From Eledone cirrhosa (Eukaryota): a stretch of DNA of 64,000 bases. The position numbers and the translations under genes were made by a program. Positions 6,147 to 52,328 of the stretch are shown in pieces (the first letter of the stretch is position 1; every line of letters starts with the position of its first letter). The notes below the pieces were generated by a model, which searched no databases, had not been told where the DNA came from, and saw only the letters and a program-made list of their open reading frames with translations. Location of the stretch: positions 21,390,001-21,454,000 of the forward strand of contig OZ024756.1 of assembly GCA_964016885.1 (NCBI GenBank), written 5' to 3'.

Positions 6147-6631
6147 GAGGGTGTTAAAGTTTGCTTGAAGCATTGTGAAATGTGTAAAATATGTAGTTTA
6201 GAAAGCCACAACAATGCAGATGGGAAATCTCGAGGTAAGAAGTGAGTGAGAAATAGGAGAAAAGTGAAAATTGAGAGAAACGAAAATGAAAACAAAACAA
6301 AGGTAGAAAAGTTACCGTAGTGGAGATTTAATCCCAATATTTCGGGCTCACGCCTATCAACGGGGGAAAGTTCCAAAAGGGGGGGAACAGGCTAAGCCGG
6401 AGAAAGTTGTATTGTCGTTACAACTTTCTCCGGCTTAGCCTGTTCCCCCCCTTTTGGAACTTTCCCCTGTTGATGGGCGTGAGCCCGAAATATTGGGATT
6501 AAATCTCCACTACGGTAACTCTTCTACCTTTGTTTTGTTTTCATTTTCGTTTCTCTCAATTTTCACTTTTCTCCTATTTCTCACTTCGAGATTTCCCATC
6601 TGCATTGTTGTGGCTTTCTAAACTACATATT
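6147..6631. mobile_element. Palindromic element in (TA)n (arms ~6188-6411 and 6419-6631), PLE pseudo-LTR-like
   Basis: Arms of ~220 bp are near-perfect reverse complements with a 7-nt loop; (TA)n on both sides; the left arm has an extra ~40-nt tail. Confidence 0.75.
6463..6498 (+). ncRNA. Variant minimal hammerhead-like motif (core CUGUUGA)
   Basis: TCCC-CTGTTGA-TGGGC(GTGA)GCCC-GAAA-TATT-GGGA; the core is non-canonical. Confidence 0.5.
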
Positions 6632-7040
6632 ATATATATATATATATATATATATATATATATATGAGAGAGAGAGAGAGAAAGAGACACGCTCTAAGAA
6701 GTTGATCATCTTGATGTGATTTGAATTTAGAATGAACATATTTCAAACTAATATACAGTGTGATGCAAATATTCCCATTTTTCGACTTGCCTAACTGTCT
6801 GGATTTATTTATTGACTGACCTGTCTGAATATATTTTTAATTAGTTGTCAAATCGTTAAAGCTGGTAGGAAAGGAATAGAATAGACAAATGAAAAATATT
6901 TCATAAAGAAATAAAATAGAAATCATCATCTGGAATCTTTGTGTAAATATCACAATTATCTTGAGGCTAATGCGTAACATTTGCATCGCAATATTGGTGT
7001 CCTTGAGACTCCAATATTGAGATGCAAAGCAAAATATTGT

Positions 7041-10000
7041 TTCTAACATAGACCAAAGTCTTGAAATGTGAAGGATAGAGAGAACCTCTGGATTAAATAA
7101 TCCTTCAATTTTTCTAACATAGACCAAAGTCTTGAAATGTGAAGGATAGAGAGAACCTCTGGATTAAATAATCCTTCAATTTTTCTAACATAGACCAAAG
7201 GCTTGAAATGTGAAGGATAGAGAGAACCTCTGGATTAGTTAATCCTTCAATTTTTCTAACATAGACCAAAGGCTTGAAATGTGAAGGATAGAGAGAACCT
7301 CTGGATTAGTTAATCCTTCAATTTTTCTAACATAGACCAAAGGCTTGAAATGTGAAGGATAGAGAGAACCTCTGGATTAGTTAATCCTTCAATTTTTCTA
7401 ACATAGACCAAAGGCTTGAAATGTGAAGGATAGAGAGAACCTCTGGATTAGTTAATCCTTCAATTTTTCTAACATAGACCAAAGGCTTGAAATGTGAAGG
7501 ATAGAGAGAACCTCTGGATTAGTTAATCCTTCAATTTTTCTAACATAGACCAAAGGCTTGAAATGTGAAGGATAGAGAGAACCTCTGGATTAGTTAATCC
7601 TTCAATTTTTCTAACATAGACCAAAGGCTTGAAATGTGAAGGATAGAGAGAACCTCTGGATTAGTTAATCCTTCAATTTTTCTAACATAGACCAAAGGCT
7701 TGAAATGTGAAGGATAGAGAGAACCTCTGGATTAGTTAATCCTTCAATTTTTCTAACATAGACCAAAGACTTGAAATGTGAAGGATAGAGAGAACCGCTG
7801 GATTAGATAAACCCTCAAATTTTGTTACATAGTCCAAAGGCTTGAAATGTGAAGGATAGAGAGAACCTCTGGATTAGATAAACCCTCAAATTTTGTTACA
7901 TAGTCCAAAGGCTTGAAATGTGAAGGATAGAGAGAACCTCTGGATTAGATAAACCCTCAAATTTTGTTACATAGTCCAAAGGCTTGAAATGTGAAGGATA
8001 GACAGAACCTCTGGATTAGATAAACCCTCAAATTTTGTTACACAGTCCAAAGGCTTGAAATGTGAAGGATAGAGAGAACCTCTGGATTAGATAAACCCTC
8101 AAATTTTGTTACATAGTCCAAAGGCTTGAAATGTGAAGGATAGACAGAACCTCTGGATTAGATAAACCCTCAAATTTTGTTACATAGTCCAAAGGCTTGA
8201 AATGTGAAGGATAGACAGAACCTCTGGATTAGATAAACCCTCAAATTTTGTTACACAGTCCAAAGGCTTGAAATGTGAAGGATAGAGAGAACCTCTGGAT
8301 TAGATAAACCCTCAAATTTTGTTACATAGTCCAAAGGCTTGAAATGTGAAGGACAGAGAGAACCTCTGGATTAGGTAAACCCTCAAATTTTGTTACATAG
8401 TCCAAAGGCTTGAAATGTGAAGGACAGAGAGAACCTCTGGATTAGATAAACCCTCAAATTTTGTTACATAGTCCAAAGGCTTGAAATGTGAAGGACAGAG
8501 AGAACCTCTGGATTAGATAAACCCTCAAATTTTGTTACATAGTCCAAAGGCTTGAAATGTGAAGGACAGAGAGAACCTCTGGATTAGATAAACCCTCAAA
8601 TTTTGTTACATAGTCCAAAGGCTTGAAATGTGAAGGACAGAGAGAACCTCTGGATTAGATAAACCCTCAAATTTTGTTACATAGTCCAAAGGCTTGAAAT
8701 GTGAAGGACAGAGAGAACCTCTGGATTAGATAAACCCTCAAATTTTGTTACATAGTCCAAAGGCTTGAAATGTGAAGGACAGAGAGAACCGCTGGATTAG
8801 ATAAACCCTCAAATTTTGTTACATAGTCCAAAGGCTTGAAATGTGAAGGACAGAGAGAACCGCTGGATTAGATAAACCCTCAAATTTTGTTACATAGTCC
8901 AAAGGCTTGAAATGTGAAGGACAGAGAGAACCTCTGGATTAGATAAACCCTCAAATTTTGTTACATAGTCCAAAGGCTTGAAATGTGAAGGATAGAGAGA
9001 ACCGCTGGATTAGATAAACCCTCATATTTTGTTACATAGTCCAAAGACTTGAAATGTGAAGGATAGAGAGAACCTCTGGATTAGATAAACCCTCAAATTT
9101 TGTTACATAGTCCAAAGACTTGAAATGTGAAGGATAGAGAGAACCTCTGGATTAGATAAACCCTCAAATTTTGTTACATAGTCCAAAGGCTTGAAATGTG
9201 AAGGACAGAGAGAACCGCTGGATTAGATAAACCCTCAAATTTTGTTACATAGTCCAAAGGCTTGAAATGTGAAGGACAGAGAAACCTCTGGATTAGATAA
9301 ACCCTCAAATTTTGTTACATAGTCCAAAGGCTTGAAATGTGAAGGACAGAGAAACCTCTGGATTAGATAAACCCTCAAATTTTGTTACATAGTCCAAAGG
9401 CTTGAAATGTGAAGGACAGAGAGAACCTCTGGATTAGATAAACCCTCAAATTTTGTTACATAGTCCAAAGGCTTGAAATGTGAAGGATAGAGAGAACCTC
9501 TGGATTAGATAAACCCTCAAATTTTGTTACATAGTCCAAAGGCTTGAAATGTGAAGGACAGAGAGAACCTCTGGATTAGATAAACCCTCAAATTTTGTTA
9601 CATAGTCCAAAGGCTTGAAATGTGAAGGACAGAGAGAACCTCTGGATTAGATAAACCCTCAAATTTTATTACATAGTCCAAAGGCTTGAAATGTGAAGGA
9701 TAGAGAGAACCTCTGGATTAGATAAACCCTCAAATTTTGTTACATAGTCCAAAGGCTTGAAATGTGAAGGACAGAGAGAACCGCTGGATTAGATAAACCC
9801 TCAAATTTTGTTACATAGTCCAAAAACTTGAAATGTGAAGCATAGAGAGAACCACTGGATTAGATAAACCCTCAAATTTTGTTACATAGTCCAAAGGCTT
9901 GAAATGTGAAGGACAGAGAGAACCGCTGGATTAGATAAACCCTCAAATTTTGTTACATAGTCCAAAGGCTTGAAATGTGAAGGACAGAGAAACCTCTGGA

Positions 10001-10930
10001 TTAGATAAACCCTCAAATTTTGTTACATAGTCCAAAGGCTTGAAATGTGAAGGACAGAGAAACCTCTGGATTAGATAAACCCTCAAATTTTGTTACATAG
10101 TCCAAAGGCTTGAAATGTGAAGGACAGAGAGAACCTCTGGATTAGATAAACCCTCAAATTTTGTTACATAGTCCAAAGGCTTGAAATGTGAAGGACAGAG
10201 AAACCTCTGGATTAGATAAACCCTCAAATTTTGTTACATAGTCCAAAGGCTTGAAATGTGAAGGACAGAGAGAACCGCTGGATTAGATAAACCCTCAAAT
10301 TTTGTTACATAGTCCAAAGGCTTGAAATGTGAAGGATAGAGAGAACCTCTGGATTAGATAAACCCTCAAATTTTGTTACATAGTCCAAAGGCTTGAAATG
10401 TGAAGGACAGAGAGAACCTCTGGATTAGATAAACCCTCAAATTTTGTTACATAGTCCAAAGGCTTGAAATGTGAAGGATAGAGAGAACCTCTGGATTAGA
10501 TAAACCCTCAAATTTTGTTACATAGTCCAAAGGCTTGAAATGTGAAGGACAGAGAGAACCGCTGGATTAGATAAACCCTCAAATTTTGTTACATAGTCCA
10601 AAGACTTGAAATGTGAAGGATAGAGAGAACCTCTGGATTAGATAAACCCTCAAATTTTGTTACATAGTCCAAAGGCTTGAAATGTGAAGGACAGAGAGAA
10701 CCGCTGGATTAGATAAACCCTCAAATTTTGTTACATAGTCCAAAGACTTGAAATGTGAAGGATAGAGAGAACCTCTGGATTAGATAAACCCTCAAATGTT
10801 GTTACATAGTCCAAAGGCTTGAAATGTGAAGGACAGAGAGAACCGCTGGATTAGATAAACCCTCAAATTTTGTTACATAGTCCAAAGGCTTGAAATGTGA
10901 AGGATAGAGAGAACCTCTGGATTAGGTAAA
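7041..10930. repeat. Tandem satellite, 71-bp unit, ~55 copies, two subtypes
   Basis: Unit CATAGTCCAAAGGCTTGAAATGTGAAGGACAGAGAGAACCTCTGGATTAGATAAACCCTCAAATTTTGTTA; the subtype switches near 7806. Confidence 0.97.
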
Positions 10931-51577: not shown

Positions 51578-51969
51578 TATATTATAACACTTATTACATC
51601 GCTTATGTAAACGTTTATATATTTGCATCGTTATATAAGGTTTATATTTAGGTCAATATTTTGCTACGTTTTTGTTTTCATAACATTTTAGTTTATTCTG
51701 TATGCAGTTTATATACAATATCGTCTTTTTTAAAATGTATCATGGATTACATTACTGGTTACAGAAGACAGAGTAACACAGTCTTCGTTCAATTTCTGGG
51801 CATATTGTCAATTACGATTTTATTTGACGTATCATATCTACATGCACATATATTTGTTTATAATATCAATATACAAACTACAAATGGTAGATATTATTAA
51901 TATTCGAAAAACTCAGATTACATTTATTGTATTCAGCCATGTAGAGCGATAACTAGTTGTTATAAATAT

Positions 51970-52107
51970 ATATTTATGAAAATAACAGATTAAAGGTTAA
52001 GCAAATAATCGCTGTTTTCACTCTTAACGGGATCTTCTGAAACTAACCGTTAAGGGTGAAAGCAGCGATTCTTTGCTTAAACTTTAATCTGTTATTTTAA
52101 TAAATAT
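51970..52107. mobile_element. Short palindromic element with a tail to (TA)n near 52195
   Basis: Arms of ~60 bp; the right arm is identical over ~55 bp to 27172-27227. Confidence 0.65.
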
Positions 52108-52328
52108 TTGCTCTACGGTTCTTATATATTTGATATATATTTATCCTTATCCAACCAACCCTCTTTGGATTTTAGTCTTCAAATTTAATATTACTATATA
52201 TATATATATATATATATATGATAGATAGAGAGAAAAGTCTAGTTTATCCTTTGCAGCGGGAGTTCGCTACCCATGGCACAAAGTAGAGACAGTATTTAAT
52301 TTTATCTCATTATGATGTGTTTTCTAAA

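Follow-up and report, generated by a model that had tools for sequence, protein, structure and literature searches.

Seven head-to-head palindromes in the Eledone cirrhosa genome as probable 5'-truncated stubs of Penelope-like elements

The window analysed here is a stretch of 64,000 nucleotides (nt) from Eledone cirrhosa (NCBI GenBank assembly GCA_964016885.1, contig OZ024756.1, positions 21,390,001 to 21,454,000, forward strand), in an animal-type genome of 3.0 Gb that is rich in simple repeats. It holds seven long palindromes, at 6188, 14857, 27244, 35422, 37238, 38087 and 51970 of the window, whose families we call P1 to P7 in that order. A preliminary description made from the sequence alone had located them there and called them mutually unrelated. 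Both statements hold: the paired arms align at 91.8 to 99.5% identity across spacers of 6 to 58 nt, and the families are without blastn similarity to one another at E<0.01. The aligned arms are 6185-6411/6419-6634 in P1 (98.1% identity, excluding an 11-nt gap), 14857-15033/15049-15226 in P2 (97.7%), 27243-27410/27417-27584 in P3 (94.6%), 35422-35604/35616-35798 in P4 (99.5%), 37238-37345/37404-37511 in P5 (97.2%), 38081-38224/38242-38383 in P6 (94.3%) and 51970-52030/52047-52107 in P7 (91.8%), and five locally shuffled windows gave nothing comparable, at most one 28-nt near-palindrome. Each palindrome is almost certainly a 5'-truncated stub of the end, or pseudo-long terminal repeat (pLTR), of a different high-copy Penelope-like element (PLE) inserted in (TA)n, and the layout is the published PLE insertion pattern, in new families. 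The arms are given below with their open reading frame (ORF), reverse transcriptase (RT) and endonuclease (EN) relatives; L-numbers denote family copies or loci sampled elsewhere in the same genome.

6147..6411, minus strand: P1 tailed arm; the tail (6147-6184) contains the start codon of the parent's ORF; parent L121
6419..6634, plus strand: P1 tail-less inverted arm; hammerhead-like motif at 6463-6498, with the core CTGTTGA in this copy
14857..15046, minus strand: P2 tail-less arm; begins at the 5' edge of hammerhead stem I, core at 15036-15042; parent L234, Hydra-type
15049..15354, plus strand: P2 tailed arm; 5' end just past the core, tail about 15227-15354
27243..27410, minus strand: P3 tail-less arm; predicted type I minimal hammerhead at 27290-27356
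27417..27680, plus strand: P3 tailed arm; predicted hammerhead at 27471-27537, tail from 27585; begins 31 nt below the family's putative TATA box
35372..35604, minus strand: P4 tailed arm; predicted hammerhead at 35544-35582, tail 35372-35421; parent L224
35605..35798, plus strand: P4 tail-less arm; predicted hammerhead at 35638-35676, predicted cut after 35671
37238..37388, minus strand: P5 tail-less arm; degenerate core TTGAAAA; Neptune-type RT/EN in L129 and L013
37389..37570, plus strand: P5 tailed arm; 28-nt deletion across the core, tail 37512-37570
38081..38237, minus strand: P6 tail-less arm; degenerate Hydra-like GIY-YIG sequence upstream in L280
38238..38441, plus strand: P6 tailed arm; begins inside the core (GGA left), tail about 38378-38441
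51970..52046, minus strand: P7 tail-less arm; begins at the stem I 5' edge, core CAGAAGA
52047..52195, plus strand: P7 tailed arm; without core, tail 52108-52195

P4 copies were located in the same genome by exact-sequence patterns and those of the six other families by similarity search. First-look candidates numbered 215 to 2984 per family for six families, and P4 gave 1958 exact 50-nt tailed matches and 1299 exact tail-less ends abutting TA. In most of the listed copies, which were chosen for having the tail, the tail is followed by (TA)n or another simple repeat. A target-site duplication made in (TA)n would blend into the repeat. Adjacent inverted arms, which were not preselected, end within 10 nt of one family-specific internal point in 69 of 91 cases across six families (P1 9/12, P2 8/13, P3 14/16, P5 10/16, P6 11/13 and P7 17/21). 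Since tailed copies and tail-less arms each stop at a family point, each family has two fixed 3' ends. The six sets of 29 loci are the best matches to the tailed queries; they exclude copies shorter than the query and are unsuited to testing cut-site starts of tailed arms. The asymmetry first described, with one arm stopping against a TA run and the other continuing into a unique tail, thus needs two amendments: the tail is indeed one-sided and mostly followed by (TA)n or another simple repeat, but it is family sequence present in other copies, about 35 to 128 nt long; and the TA run against which the tail-less arm generally stops is only a few bases long at 38087 and 51970.

Further single stubs lie in the window at 27172-27228 (P7, tail-less), 35216-35334 (P5), 48487-48591 (P1-like) and 57100-57247 (P6-like). 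The first two sit in TA runs beside the P3 and P4 palindromes, which indicates that insertions nest in one another's TA flanks. At L234:1544-2116, a P2 tail-to-tail palindrome has two tail-less 3' ends facing each other across a short TA run, a layout expected if one TA site took two insertions. In P7, the same or nearly the same centre junction is found at unrelated loci (L163-L167 and L171), by recurrent joining or by amplification of a unit, in a sample biased by its query.

Parents with RT and/or GIY-YIG sequence were found for all seven families, with the weakest case in P6. The P1 parent is a 3270-bp tandem unit with RVT_1 and GIY-YIG domains by Pfam and its start codon in the tail, and L121 combines a pLTR-ORF-pLTR partial tandem with an inverted tail-less copy. 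The P4 parent, L224, is a 4202-bp unit with Pfam GIY-YIG and RVT_1 matches, the latter at 27.6 bits, just under the cut-off of 29.6. Partial tandems that form pLTRs have a period of about 3270 bp in P1 (L121, L122) and of 4186-4202 bp in P4 (L223-L225). For P2, P5 and P7, the copies are degenerate and their RT/EN sequence was recognised with tblastn and from motifs: in P2, an entire though degenerate unit is flanked by two pLTRs in L234 and shows RWR and DKT motifs that match the description of Hydra; in P5, Neptune-type RT/EN is colinear in L129 and L013; and in P7, Hydra-like RT and GIY-YIG are colinear in L176, with GIY-YIG also in L181 and L190. A Hydra-type RT-side ORF follows the P3 tail in L126, and P6 has a degenerate Hydra-like GIY-YIG upstream in one locus, L280, part of which is common to L281.

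Across the parents, the motif types are Neptune-, Hydra- and Nematis/Penelope-like; clade labels rest on motifs read by eye. The Neptune clade is recognised by GxKF, DKG, a CX2-5CxxC linker and CCHH in the nuclease; P4 carries GLKF, DKGG and CNDNRCGTC, P5 is 41-52% identical to P4, and by these motifs both families would be Neptune-type. The Hydra clade has an RWK-like motif, DKT, a CxCX5C linker, no CCHH and a (TA)n target, according to the available parts of PMC8557442. Some of its traits appear in P2 (RWR, DKT, CNC) and P3 (DKT), with the last linker Cys not seen in these degenerate copies, and the P6 and P7 nucleases are related to that of P2 (35-45%). In the P4 parent, the coding sequence is divided between an upstream frame and an RT/EN frame that overlaps it (L224:682-2109 and 2019-4343). 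The division falls at one position in L224, L225 and L226 and close by in L223, and could reflect a small intron or a programmed frameshift.

In all seven palindromes the hammerhead-like strand points outward from the centre, as the preliminary description had stated. It had also placed several centres in or just upstream of the ribozyme core, and this is so in P2, where TCTTCAG (CTGAAGA on the minus strand) lies within the spacer at 15036-15042, and in P6, where GGA is left at 38238-38240 rather than GA alone. By descriptor scan, type I hammerhead motifs of minimal form, their stem III palindromic, occur in P1 (6463-6498) and in both arms of P3 and P4, and in the P2 family the stem II of such a motif measures 101 nt. 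The motif is complete in P2, P3 and P4; the core is altered in P1, P5 and P7, and P6 has a weak stem I. The core is non-canonical family-wide in P1 (CCGUUGA), P5 (UUGAAAA) and P7 (CAGAAGA). Since descriptor scans of the P5, P6 and P7 families gave no complete motif, these motifs are hammerhead-like only. An Rfam search returned no hammerhead among the best 150 of its 448 matches; those 150 were all of microRNA (miRNA) type, below gathering score and on simple repeats or hairpins. The P4 hammerhead region has a weak monomer fold (z +1.7), and we treat the complete pLTR motifs as predicted hammerheads of the minimal form. Three more minimal type I hammerheads with intact cores and a palindromic stem III occur in the window at 14227-14297 (minus strand), 41051-41130 (plus) and 49438-49525 (plus); they have no mirror arm and are likely solo stubs of other PLE families.

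To see where the centres fall without selection, we took 80 of the 1299 tail-less P4 ends, the first ones in the list, which all lie on contig C1; positions are counted from the tail-less end. L323 and L324 are one junction seen twice, so that the 80 loci are 79 events, and the script end points of L299, L326, L329 and L346 are unreliable (simple repeat or indel). An arm starts at -206..-185 in 39 of the 80 loci and at -200..-198 in 24; this hot spot has a sharp upstream edge and a ragged downstream side, and it was replicated in 24 of 35 further P4 arms. Position -199 is 31 nt below TATAAAAG. In four of the seven families, the hot spot lies 29 to 31 nt below a sequence that we take to be a TATA box (P3 31, P4 31, P5 29 and P6 30 nt). 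The P2 sample comprised 50 of 267 exact ends, two of which were dropped because another repeat abuts the end, leaving 48. Of these, 23 start at -194..-182, at a TCATT that we presume to be initiator (Inr)-like and that is also the stem I 5' edge; this count still includes at least two loci with an abutting repeat, L394 and L425. The P7 hot spot resembles that of P2 in coinciding with the stem I 5' edge, and P1 starts cluster at about -255. A 190-bp high-copy repeat, present in the window at 21706-21916 and in about 12 more copies (1878-2061, 3880-4088, 24415-24604, 51067-53354), abuts P2 copies at ATTAT sites in other loci and can mimic 5' truncation points.

Given the spacing below the TATA box in four families, the hot spots likely mark the 5' end of the RNA, a predicted transcription start, where cDNAs run off. 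Run-off there agrees with PMC11167929, in which reverse transcription begins at the pLTR-ORF junction, not far from the RNA 5' end. Against a transcription start, neither P1 nor P2 has a TATA box about 30 nt above its hot spot, and P7 has only a weak, variable one. TATA and TCACT are noted in a rotifer pLTR (PMC3846280). If run-off is right, centres fall near the ribozyme mainly because the ribozyme happens to sit near that 5' end, and those of P2, P6 and P7 cut into it because no more than about 30 nt separate the RNA 5' end from the beginning of the motif and ends are trimmed. The suggestion that the ribozyme sets the centre is not retained as the main rule: most centres cluster at the likely start of transcription, which lies upstream of the ribozyme or at its 5' edge.

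In P4, the two arms are usually joined. For 63 of the 80 tail-less ends, an inverted tailed copy lies no more than 9 kb upstream, and in 61 cases the junction is direct: 27 by microhomology, 5 bluntly and 29 with inserted, often templated, bases. The tail is included in 53 joined pairs; among these, the tail-less arm is the longer one in 9 and the tailed arm in 13, and the two start within 20 nt of each other in 31. In P2, the tail-less arm is longer in 6 pairs and the tailed arm in 1 (L417, with a 42-nt overlap, was excluded). In four loci (L378, L380, L388 and L355) the partner consists of tail sequence only, and the arms share no sequence. Nine P4 junctions have a 2-nt AC/GT overlap at -199/-196, five in one orientation and four in the other, in several subfamily backgrounds; in cis, such a junction would need a 1-nt hairpin loop. 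At subfamily sites, the two arms of a locus carry matching variants in 66 of 68 comparisons, against a mean of 0.56 on shuffling, and hence stem from one source; locus-private variants lie in only one arm in 38 of 40 cases, so that later homogenisation has been slight.

We consider it probable that each palindrome consists of two separately primed cDNAs, one per cut target end, joined end to end. This is favoured because the tail-less arm is longer in nine P4 and six P2 loci, because four partners are tail only, and because nine junctions would call for a 1-nt loop. In those nine P4 and six P2 loci neither arm contains the other, since the tail-less arm reaches further upstream while its partner has the tail. 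Several counts weigh on the other side: no tailed partner lies within 9 kb of 17 of the 80 tail-less P4 ends, direct pairing is seen for only 22 of 50 such ends in P2, and both the concordance of arms and the 31 of 53 pairs with close starts are equally predicted by fold-back, so that concordance does not separate the models. Under fold-back, which takes in the antisense self-priming idea for Adineta Penelope elements, a cDNA would run off, snap back and be extended, and a nuclease would resolve the product at the tail boundary. Self-priming was proposed for head-to-head palindromes (PMC3846280, in the part available), and short palindromes do occur at some junctions, as in the spacer at 37373-37404. 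However, the second arm should then copy part of the first, which does not fit the longer tail-less arms or the four loci whose arms have no common sequence; the nine AC/GT junctions fit poorly as well, and no P4 junction is centred on the 8-nt palindrome in hammerhead stem III. Fold-back is thus unlikely as the general route, and may make a subset. What stands of the earlier proposal is a single PLE mechanism that makes head-to-head duplicates, like inverted pLTRs, by priming from both strands; fold-back as its main rule does not.

It is highly unlikely that the hammerhead fixes the centres as a general rule, whether by cleavage or by RT stalling at its fold. Such a rule would account for a P4 cluster at the cut site (9 of 80 loci) and for the P2 and P7 hot spots at the stem I 5' edge, yet the main hot spots lie upstream of the core by 44 nt in P4, about 64 in P3 and about 75 in P1, a single P2 locus in 48 starts near the cut site, three families have non-canonical cores, and the monomer fold is weak. 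Least credible of all is an origin as assembly artefacts, or as miniature inverted-repeat transposable elements (MITEs) or foldback DNA elements that move as intact units. The recurrence of an identical junction in several P7 copies points that way, in a sample biased by a query that held part of the junction, as does the outcome for the one palindrome checked with reads and contigs (P1), in which none spans the centre, a result expected of a high-copy repeat that still counts against our interpretation. Ordinary MITEs with fixed terminal inverted repeats were considered in particular, but the outer ends, though fixed, are unequal, the inner ends are variable, and RT and GIY-YIG are encoded in the parents. 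The arms differ by 0.5-8% with indels, their private variants sit in one arm (38/40), and the flanks are not mirrored. This arm divergence, the unmirrored flanks, the family-fixed ends and the subfamily structure make an assembly artefact very unlikely.

For two-ended priming, we propose the following course. The GIY-YIG nuclease would cut both strands of self-complementary (TA)n; reverse transcription primed by one cut end would begin at the pLTR-ORF junction, where the tail ends, and that primed by the other at the internal site, two priming points that would parallel the two start sites measured for the Anolis element PAc. Both cDNAs would usually run off after 70-260 nt at the transcription start, so short a distance because the pLTR-ORF junction lies near the mRNA 5' end, and host end-joining would trim and link them, either at 1-5 nt of microhomology or with templated insertions. 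Priming at the downstream junction of a tandem RNA may give copies that are longer or tandem, and a minority of P4 cDNAs may have run off at a ribozyme-cut 5' end.

Such cDNAs would account for a further cluster of P4 starts, at -128..-120, where the predicted cut falls after -127. It takes in 9 of the 80 loci, half of the 18 that have any start between -175 and -47 (binomial p 1e-6, or 2e-4 if each locus is given two chances). The listed flanks of the nine differ, in most of them both arms begin at or just below the cut site, and none of these nine P4 loci is centred on the stem III palindrome. Microhomology blurs P4 start positions by about 2 nt, which weakens the cluster; 1 of 48 P2 loci starts near the P2 cut site, which weighs against its being general; and the P4 replication set, with a cut-site start in 1 of 35 arms (1 of 6 in the mid range), also weighs against it. 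The cluster is a hint, a lead from one family. If it is sound, the stubs could be a genomic read-out of PLE reverse transcription, with two cDNAs per event reaching the RNA 5' end and about one in ten P4 insertions templated by hammerhead-cut RNA; we hold this tentatively, at somewhat short of even chances. Genomic data would then be evidence for in vivo cleavage by the hammerhead of a PLE and for retrotransposition of the cut RNA. Short tandem re-starts were also seen in P4 arms at L341, L362 and L363, where the second unit begins at or just below the predicted cut site.

In LINE-1 twin priming, both target ends prime cDNA, the junction shows microhomology and an inversion results. The LINE-1 parts do not overlap, whereas here both arms cover the same sequence, and so a palindrome forms. 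For EN+ PLEs, insertions with an inverted 5'-truncated copy, a one-sided tail of 30-40 bp and a (TA)n bias have been described (Craig et al. 2021, PMC8557442), as have head-to-head palindromes, with self-priming as the proposal (Arkhipova et al. 2013, PMC3846280). Shared with the elements of these two papers are partial-tandem pLTRs, an adjacent inverted 5'-truncated copy, the one-sided tail, head-to-head palindromes, a predicted hammerhead or hammerhead-like motif in the pLTR, (TA)n targets, and putative TATA and Inr-like sequences (TCACT). The families here differ in their longer tails (about 35 to 128 nt, against 30-40 nt) and in the dominance of solo pLTR stubs, and hot spots and a cut-site cluster are not reported in the available parts of those papers.

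For PAc (Poseidon from Anolis carolinensis), both strands were cut and extended in vitro, and reverse transcription started at two internal sites bounding the tail, at the pLTR-ORF junction near the RNA 5' end (Frangieh et al. 2024, PMC11167929). The same source gives a predicted dimer and reports that hammerhead cleavage was unnecessary in vitro, with no RNA reads ending at the cut site. Our families are like PAc in having two fixed 3' ends that bound the tail at the pLTR-ORF junction and AT-rich targets, and unlike it in the P4 cluster at the cut site (9/80). Metazoan non-LTR retrozymes (PMC7229834, seen in part) are likewise short, AT-rich repeats bearing type I hammerhead motifs; they are head-to-tail tandem, non-coding and canonical in their hammerheads, whereas the repeats here are head-to-head stubs of coding PLEs with minimal motifs. 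In the main texts of an incomplete set of papers, we found no report of twin priming in PLEs or of PLE copies starting at a hammerhead cut site.

The layout itself is ordinary for PLEs, and its value lies in the material it offers on mechanism. The origin of inverted pLTRs and the role of PLE hammerheads are both named as unanswered in the literature (PMC8557442, PMC11167929). This one genome carries young two-armed insertions by the thousand, from several clades, so that arm lengths and junctions can be counted; our counts incline towards two-ended priming and give a hint that the ribozyme of one family cuts in vivo. New here, and modestly useful, are the 5' hot spots across families, the evidence on two-ended priming and the cut-site cluster. 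At a density of seven in 64 kb, such hairpins will often be mistaken for miRNA precursors or MITEs.

Outside the seven, the window contains a 71-bp satellite at 7046-10930 (about 55 copies, 97% identity), a short hairpin adjoining P2 at 14680-14738, and an older 180-bp palindrome at 45947-46128 with about 72-75% arm identity.

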